From: an uncultured delta proteobacterium
Lineage (GTDB): Bacteria; Desulfobacterota; WTBG01; CAIYCZ01; CAIRTM01
Reading direction: 5' to 3'
Assembly (NCBI GenBank): GCA_903911225.1
Contig: CAIWCT010000155.1
Location: 1-60,148, forward strand
DNA: 60,148 bases
Positions 1 through 53,420 of the stretch are shown piece after piece; positions within the stretch are counted from its first letter, which is position 1; every line of letters starts with the position of its first letter. Below the pieces are notes generated by a model that searched no databases, had not been told where the DNA came from, and saw nothing but the letters and a program-made list of their open reading frames with translations. The translations under genes and the position numbers were made by a program.

Positions 1-445
1 CCTTGGTCTTGCCGCTGCCGGTAGCCATTTTTATAACAAGCCGCAGCCAGTCTTCATCAAACATGCCCGTTGATACTGCGCCGGATGAGTCATAGCGCAT
101 CAAATCATACTTGTCTTTTACCCCCGCAACTTCATACAGAAACACCACCGTTTCAATGGCCTCGCGCTGGGCAAAGTAGTATTTGAAATCTAAAAGGCTG
201 CCATCGGCTTTCGGGATGATATGCTCGGTCTTAAACCACCAATTCATCAGCGCCCGGCTGGTTTCAGTCGCCCCGGCATACCCCGAGTCTCGCCAGGCCT
301 GTACTTCCTTGCGGATTTTATGCACCATCGGCGGCAGCAGCTTTTCATAGCTTGATTCCCGCAGGGCTTCATCAGCCGGAAACCACCGGAAGTCGGGGTT
401 CAGCACATCATAGGGCGAGGTCGGAAAGGAAGGGTGAATAGCCAT
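1..445 (-). CDS. res: Type III R-M Res subunit (SF2 helicase-nuclease). Only the N-terminal ~148 codons are present; the rest lies beyond the window edge.
   Basis: ATG at 445 (cat at 443-445), open to position 1. My translation is MAIHPSFPTSPYDVLNPDFRWFPADEALRESSYEKLL...FKYYFAQREAIETVVFLYEV...VIKMATGSGKTK, ending in helicase motif I (GSGKT). It lies on the same strand downstream of a Mod-type methyltransferase. Confidence 0.7.
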   Translation of the reverse strand, partial: MAIHPSFPTSPYDVLNPDFRWFPADEALRESSYEKLLPPMVHKIRKEVQAWRDSGYAGATETSRALMNWWFKTEHIIPKADGSLLDFKYYFAQREAIETVVFLYEVAGVKDKYDLMRYDSSGAVSTGMFDEDWLRLVIKMATGSGKTK

Positions 446-551
446 ATTGAGCCGTTGTTTGGGTTTAATTGCGTTTTAGAAATAGACCTTTTTAAAGAAA
501 AAACAAATAATTACAAACCTCTATTTGCGTTATTTGGGTTTTATTTGCGTT

Positions 552-2228
552 TTACCGCAACTGCCAATAGCCGCCCCTGGTCTTGCCGAGACATTCTATA
601 ATGCCGGCTTTTTTTAAATCTTTTAAAAGACTATCAATAACAGAGCGGCTTAATTCGGGGAAGATATCGCGGAAATCATTAGCCGTTCCGGTTTCATTTC
701 TCTTTAAATGCTCAATAATCAGCTGCTTCTGCGCCTCGCGTGGCACACCTCGTAATCGCGTGTGCACCCCTGTTTTTCCGCGATGGGAGTAATACCTGTG
801 GGATAAAATGTAATGAGTTCCGCGCCCACGCCCCACCCTTTCTATGATACCGAGCTGCAGGAATTTATCACGCGAATCGGTTTTATCAATACGCTGTTTC
901 TCGCGAATTTCCTCAAGAGCAAAAATCTCCTCAAAAGAAAAGACGATTTGCTTTTCATTTGTAATCTTCTCAAGGAACAATACAAAATCTTTGTCTTTCA
1001 AACGTGCAGGGATGGATAATTCTACAGAATATGCATCACTCCTTGTAAGATCAGGTAGTCCTTTTCCATCCCGGATCGATGCTTGATAAATATCATCCAT
1101 TCCCTGTCCGGAACGTTCTACAAGCCCTGCTTTTTCAAAGGTTTCAGCAATACGCCTGTTGCGCCAATACGATTTATACAAAATATTTTCAGGAGTAATG
1201 CCTGGCGGGAGCCCGCCGGGGCTTGTGATAACAAAAGAATCGGAAGAAGCTTTTATGAAAATGGATTGACCTTTGAAAGTATAGTCGCGATGCGCCACCG
1301 CGTTCAGAACTGCTTCACGGATGGATTTTTCATCAAAGGCATAAATTTCTCTCTGGATAAAGCCCTGCTGAAAGGGCATCCGGCTGTTTCGGGCATTAAT
1401 CGTTTCCCAGATTGAATCATAAATTGCAAAGAATGATTCTCGCCATGACATGCGGTAGTCATAGGGAATACTAGCTGAGCTCTGCCGCCACTCAAAAATT
1501 ATCTCAGCGTCCGGCAGAAATTCATCAAGCTTTTCTTTCTTCCCAAAAAGCACAAGGCTTGCATAATTCAATCCTTTATCGGTTAGCAGCCCGGCTGAGC
1601 GCAGCATCTTCTCGTCTTGGAAAGTTCTATAATCATCGCGTTTGGATTTTAGCGCCCATTTTTCCTTATAAATCCCCATAGCTTTTTGTTCCAGGTCTCC
1701 CACAGATAACCCGGGAACAATGGTCATGGAAAAATCCGGTGTGCTTTCATTGAGAATCGACCTTAGTGTGGCATCATCCATTTCACGCAATGACTCACCT
1801 GCTCGCATTGGGATACTATAATGGCCGGTGGAACGAATGACAGTTCCGGCGGGTCTAGACGGCACGTGAAAAATAAGCACGCGTCCCTGGGGGTGTTGCA
1901 CCTCTTCAACATCAATCCGTATGCCAAGTTCGCTTAAAAGCTCATTGGAAAGCTTATTGTAAGTACCGTGAAATGCTTTTGACCCTACAACAACCCCTTT
2001 GTCATTAACGCCGAGCAGCAGCTTGCCGCCGCGCTCATTTGCCAGGGCTGCACAATAATCCGGCAGGTCATGGCGTCGGTCAAATTGCCCGGAAGCCCCT
2101 TTGAATTCAAGATTGCAATCCTCAAGTCGGGCCAGCAAGCGGTTAAGCTGTTCTATTGTAGTGGCTAACATCTCAATATTTTGAAAGAATTTCAGCCTAT
2201 TGCCTGAATGTTTAAGTTTGTCGCTCAT
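552..2228 (-). CDS. AlbA_2 (Schlafen-type) + HATPase_c_4 + C-terminal winged-helix protein, of the family usually annotated as a RecG-like putative transcriptional regulator
   Basis: 558-aa ORF. The N-terminus reads CNLEFKGASGQFD...PDYCAALANERGGKLLLGVNDKG (AlbA_2-like). The middle has IREAVLNAVAHRDY (HATPase_c_4 hallmark). The C-terminus reads GTANDFRDIFPELSRSVIDSLLKDLKKAGIIECLGKTRGGYW (wHTH-like). ATG at 2228. Confidence 0.7.
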   Translation of the reverse strand: MSDKLKHSGNRLKFFQNIEMLATTIEQLNRLLARLEDCNLEFKGASGQFDRRHDLPDYCAALANERGGKLLLGVNDKGVVVGSKAFHGTYNKLSNELLSELGIRIDVEEVQHPQGRVLIFHVPSRPAGTVIRSTGHYSIPMRAGESLREMDDATLRSILNESTPDFSMTIVPGLSVGDLEQKAMGIYKEKWALKSKRDDYRTFQDEKMLRSAGLLTDKGLNYASLVLFGKKEKLDEFLPDAEIIFEWRQSSASIPYDYRMSWRESFFAIYDSIWETINARNSRMPFQQGFIQREIYAFDEKSIREAVLNAVAHRDYTFKGQSIFIKASSDSFVITSPGGLPPGITPENILYKSYWRNRRIAETFEKAGLVERSGQGMDDIYQASIRDGKGLPDLTRSDAYSVELSIPARLKDKDFVLFLEKITNEKQIVFSFEEIFALEEIREKQRIDKTDSRDKFLQLGIIERVGRGRGTHYILSHRYYSHRGKTGVHTRLRGVPREAQKQLIIEHLKRNETGTANDFRDIFPELSRSVIDSLLKDLKKAGIIECLGKTRGGYWQLR

Positions 2229-2331
2229 ATTTTCAGTTTTATGAGCGACAAAGGACTTTGTTGCTAATATATGAGCGACAAAAAAACAGGCATATTTTTA
2301 AACCTGTCGAATTCGACGGGTTTAACCCTGC

Positions 2332-4482
2332 TTACACCCCCACGTCAACAATCTTCATGGTGTCGTTGCCGAAAATATCTACCACCTTCACGGCGATTTT
2401 GTACCGCCCCGGTTTGCATTCATGCCATGCCGATTTCATTTCAAGTGTGCGGTCTTTCTTGGTACGGAAACTCTGCCACTCATTTTCAAAAATGAAATCG
2501 CCTGTCCAGATCTCTTCAAACTCGCCGGTTGCGTCATTCTTCGCGCGCACGATCTCGCGCTTTGATTCAAAGTCAAAATCAACGCTCCAGTAGTCAATCC
2601 AGTCCGTCCATTTTTTGGTGAGAACCTCGCGTGTGACAATACCGTTCTTGTCCTTGATGACCTTCACGATCTGGCCGTTTTGCACAACTATTTTGTTTGC
2701 GCCGTTTTTAAGGCTGGCAGCAGCATTATCAATGCTGTCACCCTGTGAGTAATAAACGGAAAAGTCGGTCAGCTCCACGGCAAGCTTGCCTTTTTTTACC
2801 AGGGGCTTCACCTCGATGAAGGACACATCATGAAACACCACCTGGTTTTTCTCAACGGCTCGTTTATCAAACACCTCGCGGGGAATGTACTTCATGGCAA
2901 GGTCGATGCCCTTGGCCTTTGCTTCTTCCTGAATATTGGGGAACAGGCCCATTTCAAACTCAAAGGCCAGAATATCAACGCGCGAAATGCGCTTCTCGCG
3001 GCATTCAAGAATGACCTCTTCCACAAACAGCCGCGTCACCGGCAAATTGATCGGCCCCACAGACACCATCCGGCCCGCTTTCTTGCCGTGAAAACATTTA
3101 AAGTTCTCTACCCCCTCGGCCCGGTAAGCATGCAGAATCAGGCCGATAAAATCCTTCTCCTTCTGCGCAAGTTGCCGCTGCTTTTCTTCCTCGCGCAGCC
3201 CCATATTAACGCCGATATAATGCGCCCGCTCGTATTTGCCAAGGTTCAAGATTTCAAAAGCCCGGAAGTCCTTCCCTTCCGTCTTCATCTGCCGCTGCAC
3301 GCCGATCATGCGCTTGCGCGTGGTGTGAATGGCGAATTTGCCGAGATCGCTGACAATCCACTTGCGCCCCAGCTTTTCCGACACTGCCGCAGTCGTACCA
3401 GAACCACAGAAAAAATCTGCCACAATATCATTTTCGTTAGAAGATGCCTTAATGATACGCTCAAGTAAGGCTATAGGTTTTTGGGTTGGATAATCAACAC
3501 GTTCTTCTGCAGCAGATTGAATAGATTGAATATCTGTCCAAACATCTTCTGGTAGTTTTCCTTCATCCAAGTAATAACGATACAATTTTTTCTTGCCTGT
3601 TCCCCACTTTTCTACATATTCTCGGCCATTTTCATCAACACCCATTCTCCCGCCATAATTTTTTCCAGATGAATCTTGCTTATGGGGCGTAAAAGGCAGC
3701 CTTACCTCCTTGTCATTGAAATGCGGTGTTTTTGATTTTCCATACATCCAAATAGTATTGTGTTTTTTTCCAAAGTAAGCTGTGCCCTTCCCGCCTTGGC
3801 TGAAATACCAGATAATTTCATTTATCAAACAATCATGCGTAAAAACCTCATCAAGCACTTGCCTTATATGAGCCGTAACTCGCCAATCACAATGCACATA
3901 AATGCTCCCATCCTCAGCCAGCAAATCTCGCATGAGCACAAGGCGTTCATAAATCATGGAGATGAAGCTATCCGCGCCTTTGCCCCAGGTGTCGCGGTAG
4001 GCAAGCTCTTCAAGTACATTGGGTTTTTTGGTGAAGGTGTCGTCGCCGATCTCTATATCCATGGAGAAATCTGCGCCAACGTCGAAAGGCGGGTCGATGT
4101 AAATGAGTTTGATGCCGCCCTGCTTTTCAATCTCTTCGCGGATGGGGCCGTTTTTAAGGCTTGAGAGAATCAGCTTGTTATCGCCCCAGATAAGCTTGTT
4201 GGTCCAGCCCTTCAGTTGCCGACCCCGGCTGTCGATGCTGATGCCCGCGGCTTCAAACAGTGGAAAGTGTTGTTTTACGGATGCTTCCGTGCGCGGCTCG
4301 TCAACATGCTCGATTATCTGAAACGGCAGCACGATATTGGTCACCTCATTGGTCTTGCCGTTCCAGACAAGCTCCACCTCGCGCTTGTGGTCAAACAGCA
4401 AAAACCGGTACTTGTCCGGCAACGGTTTATCCGCCTCAACAAGCTTCACTATCTCGCGCTTTTCATTGTCGGTGAGTTTCAT
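2332..4482 (-). CDS. mod: Type III-style N6-adenine DNA methyltransferase (Mod, beta-class)
   Basis: Motif IV is [11 protein letters not shown]. Motif I is [26 protein letters not shown] (order IV then I, as in beta class). The N-terminus [20 protein letters not shown]...[14 protein letters not shown] is typical of Res-partnered Mods. I prefer the ATG at 4482 (MKLTDNEK), which has AAGAGGG 5 nt upstream. The ORF-track ATG at 4500 has no SD. Confidence 0.85.
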
Positions 4483-4507
4483 TGAACCCTCTTGTTGCAT
4501 CCATTTT

Positions 4508-4586
4508 GCCGGACACGCTGCGCTTTGTCCGGCCTACCATGCGCCAATCATTTTTTGTAGGCCGGACTAAACGAAGTGAGTCCGGC
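4508..4586. repeat. REP/BIME-like pair: two ~30-nt GTAG-headed hairpins in opposite orientation (4508-4537 and 4557-4586)
   Basis: The first copy is gccggaca-cgctgcgctt-tgtccggc-ctac. The second is gtag-gccggact-aaacgaagtg-agtccggc. Each has a perfect 8-bp stem, and the GTAG/CTAC heads face each other. Both copies recur at 5183-5264. Confidence 0.75.
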
Positions 4587-4592
4587 AGATTT

Positions 4593-5144
4593 TCATCCGA
4601 TAAAAACAATCCAGCGTTGGTCATCAGAATGCTTCATCCAGAAATCAAATGCTCGTGAAAGAATGTTTTCATATTCTGGAATCGGCCACTCGAATCGATA
4701 TTCCGTATCTATTCGAGGACTCTCCGTTTTTAAATCAATTGAAATATGGAGTAATGGCCTCTGTAAATCCTTAGCCCATGGCACAGACTCATCCTTTTTC
4801 CCTTTGGGGCTACGAACACAATGTTTATAAGCATTTGCCAAGTTAGCAAGTTGGCGAAGCTCATCAAATAAATCAAGAGCTTTTTTTCTAAATTGATTAA
4901 GATCAACAAAACCGCTGGTTAATGAACTTTCATTTTCAAAGTAAAAGTAGTCAATAACGTTATTGAGGGCTTCTATCGCATTTAAAAAAAGTCGAAACTC
5001 CTCGTATTTTGAAGGCGTAGAATTTTCACCCCGCTCCACATGTAGTTTCTTTTTGGATACATACTCAAAATAATTCCGAAAAGCTATATGACGAAGATAA
5101 TTTTGATAGCTTCCAAGCGGCCCTTTTAGGAACTCCATACCCAT
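4593..5144 (-). CDS. Hypothetical protein, 183 aa, with no recognisable domain, signal peptide or TM segment
   Basis: Clean ORF with GAAGG about 7 nt upstream of the ATG at 5144. It is the most AT-rich coding stretch of the island. REP-like hairpins lie immediately on both sides. Confidence 0.6.
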   Translation of the reverse strand: MGMEFLKGPLGSYQNYLRHIAFRNYFEYVSKKKLHVERGENSTPSKYEEFRLFLNAIEALNNVIDYFYFENESSLTSGFVDLNQFRKKALDLFDELRQLANLANAYKHCVRSPKGKKDESVPWAKDLQRPLLHISIDLKTESPRIDTEYRFEWPIPEYENILSRAFDFWMKHSDDQRWIVFIG

Positions 5145-5182
5145 ATATGCCTTCGAACGCCTAACATATGAATTTGTAATTT

Positions 5183-5264
5183 GTAGGCCGGAATAAACGA
5201 AGTGAGTCCGGCAGTTTTCAGTAATAACTTTGTGCCGGACACGCTACGCTTTGTCCGGCCTAAC
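5183..5264. repeat. REP/BIME-like pair, second locus (5183-5212 and 5234-5264)
   Basis: gtaggccggaataaacgaagtgagtccggc and gccggacacgctacgctttgtccggcctaac are near-identical to the copies at 4557-4586 and 4508-4537. Here the order is swapped, so the heads point outward. Confidence 0.75.
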
Positions 5265-5279
5265 ATGCTCTTTTGTCGT

Positions 5280-6017
5280 TCAGACAGCGCAAGGCATATT
5301 ATCCCATGTGCGGCCTAGAAGAAGGCGACCATTTAAGCGTTTTGCCCGCTTCTTACCATCAGCACCCCAGCCGCCCCATTGTTTGAAGAAAAAGGATGCG
5401 CCATACATATCGCAGCGGTTTTGAATGTTTTCAGCCCATTCAGGCATCATCGGTCTTGCTTGTGGCCCGGACTCACCGCCGACAATTATCCACTGAATAC
5501 CTGATAAATCAACCGGGCCGAGGTCTTCAAGAAGCGGCTCTATAGAAAGAAAGCGAACACGTGCCTTGATGCGCCGCAGAAAATCAATCCGGGGCACACC
5601 TTCTTTTTTGTTTTCAACCGTTACGCCGAGCCATGCATTTATTGGGGCACCATAAGAACGGAAAAACTGCTCCATTCTGTCAGCACGTTTTGTCAGAACC
5701 TGAAATGTATGTTGTGGGCAGTCCCGTATAACATCAAAAACCTGCCGTATATATTCCTCAGGAATTCTCTCATGAAATATATCGCTCATGGAATTCACAA
5801 AGTACATGGTGGGTTTTTTCCGGTTCAGCGGCTCATTTAAACGCTCTGGCTGCAAAGTCAGCTTAAACCCATTCTCATAACCTTTCAGCCCCATGGCGTT
5901 CAGACGATGCGCCATTTTTTCAGCATAGCAGTTGCGGCATCCCTCAGAAATCTTTGTACAGCCGGTGGCAGGATTCCACGTTTGCTCAGTCCATTCAATT
6001 TTTGATTTTGTAGACAT
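5280..6017 (-). CDS. DUF5131 / phage Gp37-Gp68 family three-Cys-motif protein
   Basis: The N-terminus is MSTKSKIEWTEQTWNPATGCTKISEGCRNCYAEKMAHRL, i.e. the IEWT..TWNP..GC-x6-C-x2-CYA signature. 245 aa. The start lies 4 nt after the TcmP stop. Confidence 0.8.
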   Translation of the reverse strand: MSTKSKIEWTEQTWNPATGCTKISEGCRNCYAEKMAHRLNAMGLKGYENGFKLTLQPERLNEPLNRKKPTMYFVNSMSDIFHERIPEEYIRQVFDVIRDCPQHTFQVLTKRADRMEQFFRSYGAPINAWLGVTVENKKEGVPRIDFLRRIKARVRFLSIEPLLEDLGPVDLSGIQWIIVGGESGPQARPMMPEWAENIQNRCDMYGASFFFKQWGGWGADGKKRAKRLNGRLLLGRTWDNMPCAV

Positions 6018-6021
6018 GATT

Positions 6022-7167
6022 TTATACCCTCACTAATCGTTCGATATTATCAAAATTGACAATATTCTTGGGTCGTTTTCTTTTCATATCAATATTTATT
6101 ACCTTATTCTCTGCGACAAGTTCTTTGAGTGCAGCCTGAAAATCACTTTCAAACCATGCTGTTTCTTCCAGCATGTCTGCAAGCTCTTCTATGCCAAATC
6201 TTTTCGGCTGATCAGATAGCTTGTTTAACCAATACTTTTTTACTTCATTTAAATCTTCATCCGATGGCTCATTAATCATTTCGGTAGAGAGTAATTTTGG
6301 TTGCTTCGTTTTTGAAACATGGTGCGCCTCTTTGGCATGAGCACGTACACGTTTCTGTATAAAATCCAGTTTTTCAGAAGCATCCATAAAAACCTGTATT
6401 CCTTTTGGATGACGAGTCAAATATACAAGATCATACTTTGTGCGGTCTTTCAGAGTATCAAGTACCTTAACATAAGCAGATCTTGCCTTAAGCCCGGTAT
6501 TCGGCTGAGCATTTTTTAAATGTGTGCGGTACAAGTCTATCAAATGGGTTTCCCGTTCTTTTGAAGACATACCCGCAGTATCTGGTACTTCACCAAAAAT
6601 TTCCTGCATATGTTTGCTAAATTCTATTTGCGTATGCGTGCGCAAAATAAAGTCAAACATGAAATTAATCAAAAACTCTGATCGAGGTCTTTGCAACAAT
6701 GGCTTTAATGTTGGTATTTCAACAACATTTTTCCAGCCCGTTGGATCAATAAAAAAGAAAGTGAAATCTGTTTTGCCGCACCATTTTAGAATATCCCCGC
6801 GCAAATCAGAAAACACACCATTCATAGCGGTTGTTTCTATTCCGCTGGCAGCTTCAGTATCAAGAAATGCATGCAGTTTTTCATAAGCATTCTTGTTTTT
6901 CTCAATGAACAAAGCCCGAAAATGCACATTTTTATTGTATGTTTTTAATAACCCATCCCGGCATTTTTTCATGGTATTTAGTGAAATGGCTATAGAGGTA
7001 TCCTGTAGATCATCGCCATCCTCCTGCCAGGGTCCGGCAAAACAATCAACATAGCAAATGGTGTCTTCATTCTTTCCCAATATCATGAACAATCGTTCAA
7101 GATATTTTTCTAGAAGCGTGTGTTTTATGTATGCTTGTTCTCGTCCTTCGTATGATTCAGGTATCAT
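6022..7167 (-). CDS. tcmP: Three-Cys-motif partner protein TcmP (TIGR04474-like)
   Basis: The N-terminus is EGREQAYIKHTLLEKYLERLFMILGK...ICYVDCFAGPWQ, followed by FTFFFIDPTGWK. It has the size (381 aa) and obligatory adjacency to a DUF5131 gene that define the family as I recall it. GGGGGAGG sits directly upstream of the ATG at 7167. Confidence 0.65.
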   Translation of the reverse strand: MIPESYEGREQAYIKHTLLEKYLERLFMILGKNEDTICYVDCFAGPWQEDGDDLQDTSIAISLNTMKKCRDGLLKTYNKNVHFRALFIEKNKNAYEKLHAFLDTEAASGIETTAMNGVFSDLRGDILKWCGKTDFTFFFIDPTGWKNVVEIPTLKPLLQRPRSEFLINFMFDFILRTHTQIEFSKHMQEIFGEVPDTAGMSSKERETHLIDLYRTHLKNAQPNTGLKARSAYVKVLDTLKDRTKYDLVYLTRHPKGIQVFMDASEKLDFIQKRVRAHAKEAHHVSKTKQPKLLSTEMINEPSDEDLNEVKKYWLNKLSDQPKRFGIEELADMLEETAWFESDFQAALKELVAENKVINIDMKRKRPKNIVNFDNIERLVRV

Positions 7168-7230
7168 ACCTCCCCCAATTTCATCATATCAACCCAGTGA
7201 CATAGAACCAATATTTATAAAATTTTTATA

Positions 7231-7259
7231 AAAATATCAGCTTGTGGCTTTTATGTCAA
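7231..7259 (-). promoter_or_regulatory. Sigma70-type promoter candidate for tcmP-DUF5131
   Basis: The minus strand reads TTGACA (7259-7254), a 17-nt spacer, then TATTTT (7236-7231). It sits in a very AT-rich 245-bp intergenic region, about 65 nt upstream of the TcmP ATG. Confidence 0.45.
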
Positions 7260-7412
7260 AGCAATGCTGAATAAACTATAGCGGATAGATTTGTCATATA
7301 AGGTCAAAAGAGGTGTGTTTGTTTTGATGTTTCATGAAAGCATGGAAGGATGGATTGGGGCCGCCCATAAATTAAATAAATCAGTAACCATGTTCTGTTG
7401 TTTCGCCTAACA

Positions 7413-9134
7413 TTATTTTATTTCCCAGGACCCTGAACGGTCCAGTTGAAGGACGCGATCATGATAGTCGATCAAGGTGGTGCGGTGTCCGACGCTGATG
7501 AAGCCAACACGGGATTCCTTGAGCAGTTGATACAGACGCTGCTGATTGTCTTCGTCAAGAGCGCTGGTGGCCTCGTCCAGAAATGCAAACTTTGAGTTTC
7601 GCAAAAAGAGTCGAGCGAAAGCCACGCGCTGTTGCTCTCCGATCGAAAGCACGTTGACCCAGTCCATCACTCGATCAAGATCGCTGTCCACGCGGTCCAG
7701 CACATCTGCCAGATTGACCCTGCCCACAACCTCAAGAATTTGCTCGTCGCTAAAGCCCCTGTCGGGATACGGGTAGAGCAGCTGGTCGCGCAGGTTACCG
7801 TCGATCATGTAGGGTCGCTGGGGCAGGAACATGATGTCCTGCCATGGCGGTCGTTCGAGCGCACCGGAACCAATTGGCCACAGCCCGGCGATTGTGCGCA
7901 GAACAGAACTCTTTCCGGTGCCGCTTGCGCCCATGATAAGAAGGCTCTGATTGCGGCGCAGCTCAAAGGACAGATCATTAACCAGAGTTTTTGATCCATC
8001 GGGCGTGCGCACGGTCAGCTTGTCCAGCTTTACCCTGCGGCTGTCATCGTCCACCTCCCCGTTCCCCTCCAGTGCCGCGCGCTCTTCCTCGGCATCGAAT
8101 TCATCCAGATCGTCCCACAACATGCCCAGGCGCTGCACCCCTGCCAGGTAGGCGCTCAACCGCTCGAACTGCGTGATGATCAGTGAAACGGCTGCCAAAA
8201 CCTGGGCAAACGCCCCTGCCGACTGGGTGACGACGCCGAATTCCACCTCTCCGCGCATGAACAGGGGAGCAACTATCACAACCGGTAGAATAAGGGCGGC
8301 ATAGTTGTAACTGTTGATAAAGAACCCCAAATTTCGATTCCAGCCGATGATGATCATCATGTTCTGAACAGCCGCTCCCAGGCGGCCCACCAGATCCCGC
8401 CGCTCACGCTTTTCCCCGCGATAGAAGGCTATGGATTCGGCATTGTCGCGCACACGAACCAGGCTGTAGCGAAAATCAGCCTCTTTCTGATACTGATGAT
8501 AGTTCAAACCGACCAGCCGGCGGCCGATGAGGATGCTCAGCCCGGTGCCGGCCACGGCGTAGACGAGCAGCACGCCGACCAGGGTGACGGAGATGGCCCA
8601 GAGCACGCCGATGAATACAATCACCGACACCGTAGCGTTCAGCGCGATCAGCAGGAAAGACAGCGAGCTGATGGTAAAATTGCGCACATCCTCGCTGATA
8701 CGCTGGTCAGGGTTGTCGATGCTGGCCGAGCCTCGCAGCCGGTAGTAAGCGCGGTTGTTGAAATACCGCTTAATTAGATGCTGCGCCATCCATTCCCGCC
8801 ACAGAAGGGCCAGCCGCTCTTCCGTCCACCGGTAGTAAACCCCGAGCGGGATTGCAAGGGCGAACGTACCGAGATACAACCACAGCGATTGCAAGTAAGC
8901 GGGTGCATCTTTCTTCGCGATGGCGGTCATGAAATCCCTGGCCACATAGCTCATGAGCACCTGCACCCCGCCGACACACAGGGCCAGGGTGAGCAGAATA
9001 ATGAGAAACCTGAGCGCTTTGTGTCGACGCTCCGAAGCAAAAAACGCTCTGGATATGAACCAGAGTTGCCGGCAGGTTGTGCCGAAAGACGCTTTGTCGG
9101 AAATTTTTTCTTCTGAGGGAGAGGCTTGGTCCAT
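7413..9134 (-). CDS. Fused TMD-NBD ABC half transporter, ABCD/SbmA-BacA-like (ABC_membrane_2) family, with canonical ATPase motifs
   Basis: The TMD has LLWREW...IDNPDQRISEDVRNFT. Walker A is GASGTGKSS. The signature is LSIGEQQRVAFARL. Walker B is FAFLDEATSALD. The H-loop is SVGHR. Confidence 0.85.
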   Translation of the reverse strand: MDQASPSEEKISDKASFGTTCRQLWFISRAFFASERRHKALRFLIILLTLALCVGGVQVLMSYVARDFMTAIAKKDAPAYLQSLWLYLGTFALAIPLGVYYRWTEERLALLWREWMAQHLIKRYFNNRAYYRLRGSASIDNPDQRISEDVRNFTISSLSFLLIALNATVSVIVFIGVLWAISVTLVGVLLVYAVAGTGLSILIGRRLVGLNYHQYQKEADFRYSLVRVRDNAESIAFYRGEKRERRDLVGRLGAAVQNMMIIIGWNRNLGFFINSYNYAALILPVVIVAPLFMRGEVEFGVVTQSAGAFAQVLAAVSLIITQFERLSAYLAGVQRLGMLWDDLDEFDAEEERAALEGNGEVDDDSRRVKLDKLTVRTPDGSKTLVNDLSFELRRNQSLLIMGASGTGKSSVLRTIAGLWPIGSGALERPPWQDIMFLPQRPYMIDGNLRDQLLYPYPDRGFSDEQILEVVGRVNLADVLDRVDSDLDRVMDWVNVLSIGEQQRVAFARLFLRNSKFAFLDEATSALDEDNQQRLYQLLKESRVGFISVGHRTTLIDYHDRVLQLDRSGSWEIK

Positions 9135-50451: not shown

Positions 50452-51711
50452 TTACGAATCAGAGGGTGTGCGGCAGGCATCGCGCATGGTATCCACGGCG
50501 ATAAAGAATTCGCGCATGGCCATGACCCAGTAGTAGCGGCCCCGGTCGGTAAGCTGGATTGTAGTGTCGGTTTCGCAGATAGCGCGGGCGAGACGCAGCA
50601 GCATGGTTTCAAAAAAAAGCTCGCGGGTATAGGGCCTGCCGAATGCTTTTTGAAATGCCGCTTTATCAAGCTCAAGGCCAAAGAGCTTCATGAGGAAGAA
50701 GTAGTAGCGGTTCTCGCGGGGGGTGAACTTTTTCACACGCGTGATGGGAAGCTCCCCCTTGTTTATTTTTGCGATATATTCCTCAAGCGAGAACGACGTA
50801 ATGTAAATGCAGTCGTTGAAGTAGCCAAACGATCCGCTGCCCGCACCGATATAGGTGTCATAGGAGATGATGTATTCGTCGATCATGGACTTTTTGCGCG
50901 AAAAGCACCAGGCTGTGGAGCCGGTGTAGTTTTTGCGCATGCGCTCAAGAATGGTGAAGTAGAAACGCTTCTCCTTGCGGAAATCGACAGCCCCGAGGGT
51001 TGAGCGCAGAGCCGCCTCCACAGACGGTGCTGTCATAAGCGGGTAGAAGGTGACCTGGTCGGGCAGGAGGCTGTCAAGAATATCAAGATCGGCACGAAGG
51101 CTTGCATCATCCTGCAGGGGCATATTAAAAATAAGATCCACATTGAGCGTATCAAAAATGCCCCTCGCGTCATGCAGCTTTTTTTGAATATCAGAGCCGC
51201 TGCCATATTTTTCAAACCTTCCGATGGCTTTGAGTATCCTGTCGTCAAAGCTCTGCACTCCTACGCTCAGGCGGTTGACGCCTGAGTCCTTTAAAGCCCG
51301 CAGATGCCTGTCGGTCAGATGATTGGGATTTGTCTCAACCGAAATTTCGCGTATGCTGAAATTGGTGCGGCAGTAGTCAAGCACGCGGGTAAGATCGGCA
51401 AGCGAGATCGTAGGCGTGCCGCCGCCGATATACATGCCCTTAAAGTCGTAGCCAAGATTTTTATACATGGCAAGCTCAAGTATGAGAGCGTCGAAATAGG
51501 GTTTGGCGCGGGCCTCGTCATAGCTGTAGCGGTGAAAAGAACAGTACGGGCAGAGCGTCTCGCAGAAAGGGATATGAACATACAGCAGATAGTCTTTAAT
51601 ATCTGTGGCCGGGCGGGGCGGCACGGGATGCTCCTCCACGCTGCCAAAGCGCAGCACAGAGCGCATGGCCTGGCGGTAGAAAATATTTAGAAAGGGCTCA
51701 ATCAGGTACAT
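50452..51711 (-). CDS. HemN-like (class C) radical SAM protein
   Basis: LYVHIPFCETLCPYCSFH carries the CxxxCxxC motif, followed by MYIGGGTPT. 419 aa. Its start overlaps the end of the upstream rSAM gene by 10 nt. Confidence 0.85.
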   Translation of the reverse strand: MYLIEPFLNIFYRQAMRSVLRFGSVEEHPVPPRPATDIKDYLLYVHIPFCETLCPYCSFHRYSYDEARAKPYFDALILELAMYKNLGYDFKGMYIGGGTPTISLADLTRVLDYCRTNFSIREISVETNPNHLTDRHLRALKDSGVNRLSVGVQSFDDRILKAIGRFEKYGSGSDIQKKLHDARGIFDTLNVDLIFNMPLQDDASLRADLDILDSLLPDQVTFYPLMTAPSVEAALRSTLGAVDFRKEKRFYFTILERMRKNYTGSTAWCFSRKKSMIDEYIISYDTYIGAGSGSFGYFNDCIYITSFSLEEYIAKINKGELPITRVKKFTPRENRYYFFLMKLFGLELDKAAFQKAFGRPYTRELFFETMLLRLARAICETDTTIQLTDRGRYYWVMAMREFFIAVDTMRDACRTPSDS

Positions 51712-53420
51712 GGTAAGCTTTCATACTTTGAATGTTTTGGCGCAGCCGGCGCGCATATTTTTAGAGACTGCGCTTTTTCAAAAAAAATATCAACGGCTTT
51801 CCGTGAGGTTTCATACGGGAACAGCTCGTAGCGGTAACTGTCTGTTTCATGCAGGCGTTTTATGCCGAAAAAAATTCTCTCCTCAAGAAGCTTTTTTGAA
51901 AGCGCCAGACCTGCTGCCTCTGTGGAAAGCGGGCGGGGAAACACTGCCTTGGTATCCGGAGAATCGGCTGTTAGATAATTCAGGTTGGAAAAAGCACAAT
52001 CAGAAAATCCTTTTTCAGCAAGCACGCCTTTTATAAAATTTATCCACCGGCACAGGCGCAGCAGTGTCACCAGGTCAAGCCGCGTACAGTGCTGCGTTTC
52101 TACAGGAAAGACGCTTGAGCGCAGCTGAGCATACTGCGAGACATCGCAAAGCCCCGCCTCCTTTACCGCCTCAAAGGTGCGGGTACCGGGGCTGGGGTAA
52201 AAGATGCTGGGCCCGAGCATTGAGGGACGCTCCATAAGATAGATAATGGAATCAACCATATCTTCAAGCCGGTGGTCGGGCATGCCCAGAATAATATAGG
52301 TTGTAACGGGCAGGCCCAGCCTTGCGGCCTCCTGCAGCGAGGCCTCGGCGCGTTTAGTGTCAGCCGGGCGATCCATGCGGCGGTTCAGTTCATGGCTGCT
52401 GCTGCCAAGTGAAAGATCAAGCCGCTCAAAGCCCGCACTTTTCATGGCCTGCAACAGCTCCGGGTCAAGAGAAATGAGCGACAGGCCGTTCATGGCAAAA
52501 AGCCGCAAGCTGCCCTCGCCGAAAGTTTTTAAAATGCCGTCAAGTATCTGAAGCGCCCGCTTGCGGTCAAAGGTAAAGTTATCGTCCTCGAAATCAAAGG
52601 CCGTTATGCCGAAGCGATCGTGGCAGTCTTTCATTTCCGCAATGACATGCTCTGCCGACCGGCACCGAAGCCTGCTTCCCATAACCTGATGCACCGAGCA
52701 GTATGAGCAGCGCTGCGGGCAGCCACGGCTGGTTAAGAGCATAGCGCAGGCTGCTTTACCCACGCCGTACCATGACGGGTCGAGAAGGTCGCGGGCAGGC
52801 AGAGGCAGGCTGTCCAGATTCTCAATAAAATCCCTGCGCGGATTGATGATTACCTCGCCGCCGTTTTTATATGCAATGCCTGCAAGGCTGCCGGGCTGGC
52901 GGCCCTCTGCCAGACAATCTATAAGCACGGGCAGCGTTTCTTCGCCCTCGCCGATAATGACGTAATCAATATACGGGCTTTTAAGCACCTCGACCGGAAG
53001 CGCGCTTGCATGGGCGCCGCCCACGATAACGGGAATAGCGGAATTTATACTTTTGACGATCCGCGCGGTCTTGAGCGTTTCTTCCACATAAGGCGTGAAC
53101 TGGCAGGATATACCTACGGCCTGCGGCGCTGCCGCTGCAACAGCCTGCCTCATCTCCTCCCATGAAATGCCGAAATGGCTGTAAGTGCCGTAGAGCCGAA
53201 ACGGGCTTATGTCGCCTGCTGTGTAAAAGCGGTGCATATACGAGAAGGCCGCAGGCAGGGGCAACTGCCGCTTTTTACCCGGCTGCTGGCAGTCGAGCAG
53301 CGCGATGTCGTGACCATGCTCGCGCAGCGCTGCGGCAAGGCAGGCTAGCCCCAAAGGCTGCGTGCGAATGGCGGTTTGGTAAAAATCCTCTACGGGAGGC
53401 TGAATGAGAAGAACGCGCAT
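51702..53420 (-). CDS. Cobalamin-binding-domain (class B) radical SAM protein
   Basis: The N-terminus MRVLLIQPPVEDFY...PLGLACLAAALREHGHDIALLDC is typical of a B12-binding domain. The rSAM motif is TSRGCPQRCSYCSV. 572 aa. Confidence 0.85.
   Translation of the reverse strand: MRVLLIQPPVEDFYQTAIRTQPLGLACLAAALREHGHDIALLDCQQPGKKRQLPLPAAFSYMHRFYTAGDISPFRLYGTYSHFGISWEEMRQAVAAAAPQAVGISCQFTPYVEETLKTARIVKSINSAIPVIVGGAHASALPVEVLKSPYIDYVIIGEGEETLPVLIDCLAEGRQPGSLAGIAYKNGGEVIINPRRDFIENLDSLPLPARDLLDPSWYGVGKAACAMLLTSRGCPQRCSYCSVHQVMGSRLRCRSAEHVIAEMKDCHDRFGITAFDFEDDNFTFDRKRALQILDGILKTFGEGSLRLFAMNGLSLISLDPELLQAMKSAGFERLDLSLGSSSHELNRRMDRPADTKRAEASLQEAARLGLPVTTYIILGMPDHRLEDMVDSIIYLMERPSMLGPSIFYPSPGTRTFEAVKEAGLCDVSQYAQLRSSVFPVETQHCTRLDLVTLLRLCRWINFIKGVLAEKGFSDCAFSNLNYLTADSPDTKAVFPRPLSTEAAGLALSKKLLEERIFFGIKRLHETDSYRYELFPYETSRKAVDIFFEKAQSLKICAPAAPKHSKYESLPCT

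Follow-up and report, generated by a model that had tools for sequence, protein, structure and literature searches.

A TcmP-DUF5131 gene pair in a deltaproteobacterial defense island: a candidate conflict module with predicted methyltransferase and radical SAM folds

The stretch of DNA analyzed here, hereafter the window, covers 60,148 nucleotides (nt) of contig CAIWCT010000155.1 (positions 1 to 60,148, forward strand; assembly GCA_903911225.1) from an uncultured delta proteobacterium, and near its left end it carries two adjacent genes encoding a TcmP family protein and a DUF5131 (Gp37/Gp68) protein. The pair is a clean further member of a candidate defense system already catalogued as PDC-M30/M41 and is no new discovery in itself. 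Structure prediction with AlphaFold2 (AF2) suggests that TcmP is a class I S-adenosylmethionine (SAM)-methyltransferase-fold protein and that DUF5131 resembles spore photoproduct lyase (SPL), a radical SAM enzyme acting on DNA. Our favored reading, to which we give slightly less than an even chance, is that the pair constitutes a mobile, SAM-using two-enzyme module that acts on nucleic acid (probably DNA) in conflicts between hosts and mobile elements, with a role in defense or exclusion.

Results

Family membership of the gene pair

An earlier note on this DNA, made from its letters alone, had described two open reading frames (ORFs) separated by 4 nt, and both were recovered on the minus strand with exactly those coordinates, DUF5131 being the downstream gene and the gap spanning positions 6018 to 6021. 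The features of the pair are as follows.

6022-7167, minus strand: TcmP gene (381 amino acids [aa], three-Cys-motif partner protein), recognized by TIGR04474, PADLOC PDC-M30A, and the AF2 model
6298-7167, minus strand: TcmP residues 1 to 290, N-terminal helix and class I SAM-methyltransferase-like Rossmann domain, from Foldseek and conservation
6025-6276, minus strand: TcmP residues ~298 to 381, winged helix-turn-helix (GMT-wHTH), from PF22560 and AF2 secondary structure
5280-6017, minus strand: DUF5131 / Gp37-Gp68 gene (245 aa), recognized by PF07505, TIGR04471, PDC-M30B/M41B, and the AF2 model
5928-5960, minus strand: Cys20-x6-Cys27-x2-Cys30, presumed [4Fe-4S] ligands, invariant in bacterial, plasmid, and phage homologues
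7231-7259, minus strand: promoter-like site TTGACA-17-TATTTT with a TG extension, ~64 nt 5' of the TcmP ATG, within a 245-nt spacer

Both family assignments proposed earlier were recovered with profile hidden Markov models. TcmP scored 114.8 bits against TIGR04474 (cutoff, 53) over residues 10 to 265, and DUF5131 scored 355 bits against PF07505 (cutoff, 28.9), covering model positions 1 to 243 of 243. The TIGR04474-style adjacency to a PF07505 protein is present as well, with the DUF5131 start lying 4 nt past the TcmP stop. DUF5131 also matched TIGR04471, "radical SAM mobile pair protein A," at 1e-28 and 100 bits (residues 15 to 212), far under the equivalog cutoff of 355, which points to a related but distinct family; per its name, TIGR04471 is likewise a paired gene borne on mobile elements.

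In PADLOC-DB v2.0.0, the two adjacent genes matched the A and B component models of PDC-M30/PDC-M41, and the architecture of a TcmP-like A protein followed by a DUF5131 B protein is therefore shared with that entry. The DUF5131 matches were strong (PDC-M30B, 2.5e-109; PDC-M41B, 1.5e-108; 360 to 362 bits). In contrast, the TcmP of the window matched the A model only weakly (PDC-M30A, 3e-12, 44 bits), suggesting that it belongs to a divergent subfamily. The pair had been put forward as the best candidate for an uncharacterized system; this stands insofar as no assigned function was found, but the system had already entered PADLOC-DB v2.

TcmP is a predicted methyltransferase-fold protein with a conserved pocket

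The TcmP model was built on 59 homologues (predicted local distance difference test [pLDDT], 90.6; predicted template modeling score [pTM], 0.88) and displayed an alternating beta/alpha core. When this single-protein model was compared with the PDB using Foldseek, it matched class I SAM methyltransferases, which accounted for 15 of the 17 significant matches, the other two being plant GRAS-domain proteins. The best match was the tRNA m2,2G enzyme Trm1 (3axs; E, 3.7e-5), and RsmD, TrmR, KsgA, COMT, and HNMT were also retrieved. Searches of PDB chain sequences with TcmP, as a single sequence and as a profile, gave nothing meaningful, and a viral structure library yielded generic methyltransferases only and no TcmP-like protein.

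Both motifs on which the methyltransferase reading had first been based are present in the 381-aa protein: the motif I-like YVDCFAGPW at residues 39 to 47 (nt 7027 to 7053) and the motif IV-like FFFIDPTGW at residues 137 to 145 (nt 6733 to 6759). An exhaustive HMMER search retrieved 1,593 TcmP-related clusters (50% identity level), and conservation was evaluated in 120 diverse full-length representatives that were 28 to 59% identical to the query. D41xFxGPW, E89, and D141PxGW were conserved in 97 to 100% of them, with E89, located at the end of the second strand in the motif II position, reaching 99%. The invariant D141-P-x-G-W differs, however, from the canonical (D/N/S)PP(Y/F/W). Other near-invariant residues include the N-terminal K15-H16, S58, E164, N168, and M170. 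Judged by these residues, the pocket is under strong purifying selection; a decayed fold is therefore less likely than an enzyme or, at the minimum, a protein that binds a ligand. The predicted fold together with the near-invariant motif I, II, and IV positions thus favors the methyltransferase reading, and TcmP is, on the model, a class I SAM-methyltransferase-fold protein that has kept a putative SAM pocket and an amino-methyltransferase-like DPxGW. In a comparison with the closest locus for which DNA was available, dS was saturated and the TcmP dN/dS was ~0.1, which indicates that TcmP as a whole is probably under purifying selection.

The winged-helix character suspected for the TcmP C terminus was supported by a match to PF22560 (GMT-wHTH; 37.1 bits; cutoff, 27), in agreement with the AF2 secondary structure. 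Scanning of the longer family members revealed no fusions to effector domains. Among known enzymes, the N2-guanine (amino) methyltransferases Trm1 and RsmD have the class I fold in common with TcmP, Trm1 being the best PDB match. Trm1 and RsmD carry a DxFxG-type motif I and a DPFG/DPPF-type motif IV, resembling the DCFAGPW and DPTGW of TcmP. Nevertheless, there is no relation at the sequence level, and TcmP differs from them by its K15-H16 helix, the Trp in motif I, and the C-terminal wHTH.

The DUF5131 model resembles spore photoproduct lyase

The N-terminal IEWT..TWNP..GC-x6-C-x2-CYA cluster described previously is present at DUF5131 residues 7 to 32. Its three cysteines (C20, C27, and C30) do not vary among 55 close homologues or in phage and plasmid homologues. 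About 60 further residues, among them FVNSMSD, H103, TKR, E135, SxEPL, GGESGP, C202, and FFFKQWG, are invariant too, and many of these lie at the C-terminal ends of strands. This invariance extends to homologues encoded by Gordonia, Mycobacterium, and Rhizobium phages and by a Rhizobium plasmid. The protein is basic (isoelectric point [pI], 9.3), and the family is abundant, with at least 8,000 candidates in a protein search.

The AF2 model of DUF5131 (pLDDT, 82; pTM, 0.81) shows a partial beta/alpha barrel starting with the Cys loop. Its six best PDB fold matches were all spore photoproduct lyase (probability, 1.0; template modeling score, ~0.5; E, ~1e-3), and lipoyl synthase, another radical SAM enzyme, was also among the fold matches. 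Since the model is a barrel of the radical SAM type with SPL as the best match, the three cysteines most likely bind a site-differentiated [4Fe-4S] cluster that cleaves SAM. The site had previously been described as a metal or Fe-S ligand set, and the Fe-S part of this description stands; it is, however, most likely not a generic site, as seen from the radical SAM classification (PMC9477430), the 1e-28 match to TIGR04471, and the SPL-like model. In RadicalSAM.org, DUF5131 is assigned to the radical SAM subgroup Megacluster-5-2, beside SPL in 5-3 (PMC9477430).

SPL (SplB; PDB 4FHC and 4K9R) is therefore the closest structural relative, being the best fold match and belonging to the same megacluster, and in SPL a three-Cys Fe-S/SAM site, such as is predicted for DUF5131, opens a partial barrel, and the enzyme acts on DNA. 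The likeness is in the fold only: the cysteines are spaced Cx6Cx2C in DUF5131 and Cx3Cx2C in SPL, DUF5131 is ~100 residues shorter, SPL has no methyltransferase-like partner, and searches of PDB chain sequences with DUF5131, as a single sequence and as a profile, returned no SPL chain at an E value of ≤10. A second SPL-like radical SAM enzyme, gp53 of phage M6, isomerizes a thymidine hypermodification on DNA (PMC8989533). By description, gp53 is encoded by a mobile genome and acts on post-replication DNA in a phage-host conflict setting, as DUF5131 may do as well; unlike DUF5131, it belongs to a pathway on 5-hydroxymethyldeoxyuridine that comprises a kinase, an amino-acid transferase, and a pyridoxal phosphate enzyme, and no such partners occur here. 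Because SPL and M6 gp53, the two experimentally studied SPL-like enzymes, both work on DNA, DNA is by analogy the most likely substrate of DUF5131. Prokaryotic viperins would be a further parallel, as radical SAM enzymes in immunity, if the defense reading is right. Viperins, whose substrates are free nucleotides, combine a canonical Cx3Cx2C with a fold of their own. DUF5131, in contrast, is SPL-like and has a methyltransferase-like protein as its partner.

Linkage of the two genes

TcmP relatives were identified in 394 of ~185,000 species (one genome per species; pattern and tblastn), and the locus statistics given here refer to the best 80 of these 394 loci. DUF5131 lies directly downstream of TcmP on the same strand in 52 of the 80, with a 4-nt ATGA overlap in 42, and it is found elsewhere but within 2 kb of TcmP in another 16; the contig ends right after TcmP in 5. 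Pairwise distances of the two proteins are correlated (r = 0.72; Mantel P = 0.001), and TcmP diverges faster than DUF5131 (mean distance, 0.50 versus 0.30).

Variants of the arrangement were also observed. Twelve Burkholderiales loci (L060 to L083; e.g., L072, 7291-11179), which count among the 16 with DUF5131 elsewhere, show the order S24 UmuD/LexA-like peptidase, DUF5131, second TcmP paralogue, TcmP. This paralogue (TcmP2) is 19% identical to TcmP and reaches 205 bits with TIGR04474; its motif I is the canonical DGFAGGG. TcmP2 also follows DUF5131 in L007, L021, and L048 and on a Pseudomonas aeruginosa plasmid. Of the seven loci in which TcmP lacks a DUF5131 gene within 10 kb, six from Syntrophobacteraceae (L050, L056, L059, L068, L069, and L084) have TcmP after a gene for an HTH-S24 (CI/LexA-like) repressor; here, TcmP either acts alone or has its partner encoded elsewhere in the genome.

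Expression signals

The earlier note had credited the pair with its own promoter and a strong Shine-Dalgarno (SD) sequence. The TTGACA-N17-TATTTT site is present upstream of TcmP, but promoter-like sites around the pair are not in excess (8 observed versus 7.5 in shuffles); for this reason, the site is a plausible candidate for the native promoter and no proof of one. Similarly, the SD-like GGAGGT of TcmP is present but abuts the ATG, with atypically short spacing. An SD-like GAGGG lies ~10 nt 5' of the DUF5131 ATG, and since it falls within the 3' end of TcmP, the arrangement would fit translational coupling of the two genes. No intrinsic terminators were called between 4400 and 7500. Rfam scanning of the whole window gave zero matches, and hence no riboswitch upstream of TcmP.

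Genomic contexts of related pairs

A type III restriction-modification (R-M) methyltransferase, Mod, is encoded directly downstream of the pair in 12 of the 80 loci, together with Res in 11. Mod and Res of the window are 27% and 25% identical to those of the other loci. Across the same type III loci, TcmP is 52 to 58% and DUF5131 ~70% identical, so that the association of the pair with type III R-M spans very different R-M lineages. Other genes found repeatedly next to the pair are those for a DrmD-like SNF2 helicase (7 loci, upstream), a YhcG/PDC-S02 nuclease (7 loci), a helicase and DUF2290 system, and an Hhe/PDC-S37-like helicase-nuclease. In random samples of neighbor genes within 10 kb of the pair, PADLOC matches comprised type I, IIG, and III R-M, Ssp, DRT, SIR2, and Cas1. 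These contexts show extended defense islands around the pairs. In 24 of the 80 loci, the gene immediately upstream encodes a LexA/UmuD-like S24 peptidase, one type of which scores above the NCBIfam UmuD cutoff. In Sinorhizobium meliloti, the defense gene Hna and a TcmP gene two genes away from it share their regulation (PMC12445080). The 5,426 complete Escherichia coli genomes, searched at the DNA level, yielded no homologue of the pair.

TcmP was found on 22 plasmid records. On the conjugative P. aeruginosa plasmid NZ_CP124633.1 (L094), which resembles an integrative and conjugative element (ICE), TcmP, a DUF5131 gene, and a second TcmP lie beside a helicase and a DUF6094 methyltransferase. 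The DUF5131 frame between the two tcmP genes (8385-8924) stops at 179 aa, probably representing a frameshift or a pseudogene.

Occurrence in phages, which the earlier note had mentioned, applies to DUF5131, present in 180 of 50,697 phage records, mostly from actinophages; TcmP, however, is limited to 5 of these 50,697 records, all of Gordonia temperate phages. In the latter, TcmP immediately follows the immunity repressor gene, DUF5131 is convergent to TcmP, and an integrase gene is nearby. The repressor/integrase region is the usual place of exclusion genes expressed from prophages. As DUF5131 stands alone in phage early regions, its activity is autonomous and of use to phages during replication, TcmP being an add-on mainly of cellular and lysogenic contexts. 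In Che9c (L087), Squirty (L100), and Zirinka (L103), DUF5131 is located in the early region, 1 to 1.5 kb downstream of a large C5-cytosine DNA methylase gene; this neighborhood could reflect a 5-methylpyrimidine substrate of DUF5131 or inherited synteny.

The island in the window

The other features around the pair are as follows.

1-445, minus strand: type III Res, N-terminal 148 codons, cut by the left window edge
552-2228, minus strand: AlbA_2/Schlafen and HATPase_c_4 protein (558 aa), between mod and res
2332-4500, minus strand: type III R-M methyltransferase Mod (PF01555; PADLOC MTase_III, 380 bits)
4501-4592, no strand: palindromic element, second copy, on the other side of the 183-aa ORF
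4593-5144, minus strand: 183-aa ORF between the two palindromic elements, given for context only, with no Pfam match above threshold
5145-5279, no strand: palindromic element of ~90 nt directly after the DUF5131 stop, a long hairpin without a T-run

The GC content of TcmP is 37.4%, that of its upstream spacer 34.7%, that of the 183-aa ORF 37.5%, and that of DUF5131 47.3%; the flanking chromosomal genes have ~57%, positions 1 to 7412 taken together 44.4%, and the remaining window 52.9%. The previous description of the pair as the AT-richest part of the island holds for TcmP, the spacer, and the 183-aa ORF but not for DUF5131. A sharp GC step falls within the operon, from 37% in TcmP to 47% in DUF5131, and the same step is seen in L104 (5081-6972). 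The low GC content, Mod with its 380-bit match, and the Res N terminus bear out a defense island with type III R-M, and the pair is located at the edge of this horizontally acquired low-GC island, beside the R-M genes. On a longer metagenomic contig of the same locus with identical genes (L001), the order is ABC transporter, TcmP, DUF5131, 183-aa ORF, Mod, AlbA_2/HATPase_c_4, Res, a small ORF, and an unrelated gene, and Res is complete there (895 aa; ResIII). Homologues of the AlbA_2/HATPase_c_4 protein also adjoin TcmP-DUF5131 in two other genomes (L014 and L025), and the protein has weak matches to the Schlafen-like parts of PADLOC models associated with prokaryotic Argonautes.

The 183-aa ORF was considered as a third component and was ruled out, having just 27 homologues among 5.8 billion proteins, in unrelated integrase-linked islands. 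Their neighbors are integrases, a RES toxin gene, and HNH and DUF2971 genes, never TcmP, and the ORF looks like an independent mobile-element cargo gene of a rare, unannotated family. The palindromic elements on both sides of it contain the core GGCCGGACAAAGCGnAGCGTGTCCGGCA at 4507-4534 and 5233-5260, i.e., two copies in the window where none is expected by chance, and the copy after DUF5131 folds at -52 kcal/mol (z = -6.45). They may be elements like repetitive extragenic palindromes or miniature inverted-repeat transposable elements, or cassette boundaries. No tRNA gene marking an integration site was present in the window, no flanking direct repeats suggestive of att sites were found, and every contig encoding the identical flanking ABC transporter, used in the search for an empty site, carries the pair. 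The remaining window is ordinary chromosome, with genes for chemoreceptors, hybrid histidine kinases, PilT, and transporters. This chromosomal part also encodes a B12-binding radical SAM protein (572 aa; 51702-53420, minus strand), which is unrelated to the pair.

Discussion

A two-enzyme conflict module is the reading that we favor. In such a module, TcmP and DUF5131 would be co-produced through translational coupling and would act jointly on nucleic acid, most likely DNA. TcmP would provide target recognition and/or a first SAM-dependent step; the Cx6Cx2C [4Fe-4S] site of DUF5131 would cleave SAM to give a 5'-deoxyadenosyl radical, and DUF5131 would then carry out radical chemistry on the base. 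The module would work as a conflict system of the modification type, a candidate for anti-phage or exclusion function. A defense or exclusion role is favored because of the island contexts, the position in the Gordonia lysogeny module, the faster evolution of TcmP, and the independent candidacy in PADLOC. The proposal of the earlier note, that this is a modification or sensing pair in phage-host conflict, is a reasonable inference.

Several observations weigh against this reading. On the side of TcmP, the third Gly of motif I is replaced by an invariant Trp (W47) in the subfamily of the window, which makes SAM binding uncertain, and the wHTH is acidic overall (pI, 5.0), which is unusual in a DNA-binding domain, and is the least conserved part of the protein, so that its role in DNA binding is insecure. 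For DUF5131, the Cys spacing is Cx6Cx2C (Cx9Cx2C in Che9c gp68) and not the canonical Cx3Cx2C, Pfam Radical_SAM (PF04055) gave no match at an E value of ≤0.01, and the structural similarity to SPL is moderate. The pair includes no nuclease or other obvious effector. TcmP occurs without DUF5131 within 10 kb in 7 of the 80 loci, and in L104 TcmP is 71% identical to that of the window but DUF5131 only 54%. Given that identities are also discordant in a further contig, where a 70%-identical TcmP lies beside a DUF5131 of probably 90% identity, partners are sometimes exchanged between lineages, and the coupling is not absolute. Many defense genes lie near the pair, but a comparison of PADLOC matches near (3.5 kb) and far (6 to 10 kb) from it gave no clean enrichment, defense genes being found in both zones, without a genome-wide background. 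The lone DUF5131 of phages is common among early DNA-metabolism genes (single-stranded DNA-binding protein [SSB], RecT, RusA, and replication initiator), which fits a modification or repair activity benefiting the phage at least as well as defense. Finally, PADLOC "PDC" entries are candidates only. A full-text search on both families returned annotation tables, prevalence lists, and the RadicalSAM.org classification but no paper giving a function or experiment for either family, in line with the earlier statement that neither partner has an assigned biochemical function, and for phage protection by PDC-M30/M41 it returned prevalence listings in P. aeruginosa surveys only.

DNA self-protection and DNA repair are the two foremost rivals. 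The pair might be a self-protection or anti-restriction module that hypermodifies the DNA of its element or host, with phages using DUF5131 together with another methyltransferase. We consider this unlikely, although it would account for the DUF5131 genes without TcmP in the early and replication regions of 180 phage records, for those lying 1 to 1.5 kb past the C5-cytosine methylase in Che9c, Squirty, and Zirinka, for the pair beside the DUF6094 methyltransferase and helicase on the ICE-like conjugative P. aeruginosa plasmid, and for a two-gene set without an effector; the SPL-like M6 gp53, moreover, builds a protective DNA modification. However, the TcmP of Gordonia temperate phages sits with the immunity repressor, where expression is expected in the lysogen, the chromosomal copies are in defense islands and not obviously within intact mobile elements, and the methylase synteny of the actinophages may simply be inherited. 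DNA-damage repair, in which DUF5131 would be a lyase reversing a lesion or crosslink as SPL does and TcmP would serve in lesion recognition or base flipping under SOS induction, seems to us a little less likely still. SPL is indeed the best structural match, S24 peptidase genes of the LexA/UmuD type lie directly upstream of TcmP in 24 of the 80 loci, and phage DUF5131 is found among the recombination and replication genes RecT, RusA, and SSB. Nevertheless, the distribution is patchy (pattern matches in 394 of ~185,000 species), the GC content is foreign, the contexts are defense islands or mobile elements, and TcmP evolves fast. In addition, S24 repressors are equally ordinary regulators of prophages and mobile elements, and repair leaves the conserved methyltransferase active site of the partner without a reason.

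Two further explanations concern the target and the autonomy of the pair. The target could be tRNA or rRNA, TcmP being a Trm1/RsmD-like methyltransferase whose modification DUF5131 extends, with translation being altered during infection. The fold matches to Trm1, RsmD, TrmR, and KsgA are in line with this, and a methyltransferase combined with a radical SAM enzyme is a known theme in tRNA hypermodification. We nonetheless regard an RNA target as very unlikely, as the rank among class I methyltransferases in Foldseek is no guide to the substrate, small-molecule methyltransferases scoring equally, and the closest relatives of DUF5131 act on DNA (the SPL fold match; PMC8989533). Alternatively, the pair could lack autonomy and serve the neighboring type III R-M system as accessory subunits. 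TcmP, DUF5131, the 183-aa ORF, Mod, AlbA_2, and Res follow each other on a common strand, no separate promoter was called before mod, and the order with type III Mod/Res is repeated in 12 of the 80 loci. Yet type III genes are absent from the neighborhood of the pair in the other 68 loci, the two R-M lineages that it adjoins are only 25 to 27% identical, plasmids and phages lacking R-M genes carry it as well, and in the window it is set apart from mod by a palindromic element and by a cargo gene unrelated to it. An accessory role is hardly to be expected.

Within the conflict-module reading, a further-reaching version is conceivable, which we regard as doubtful. In this version, the pair would be a new immune or exclusion system in which a partner with a methyltransferase fold guides or primes a radical SAM enzyme that works on the DNA directly and either writes an unknown self-mark or disables invader DNA without a nuclease; the phage DUF5131 would be the counter-move or the evolutionary source.

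The pair of the window is compact and apparently intact, has a plausible native promoter, and may cooperate with the type III R-M system next to it, and it is for these reasons a reasonable construct for a first functional test. Both TcmP and DUF5131 move between phyla. If the pair modifies DNA by radical chemistry, this would add to the reactions of SPL and M6 gp53 a DNA-directed radical SAM reaction of a third kind, and it could bring with it a new DNA base modification and a nuclease-free principle of defense or counter-defense.

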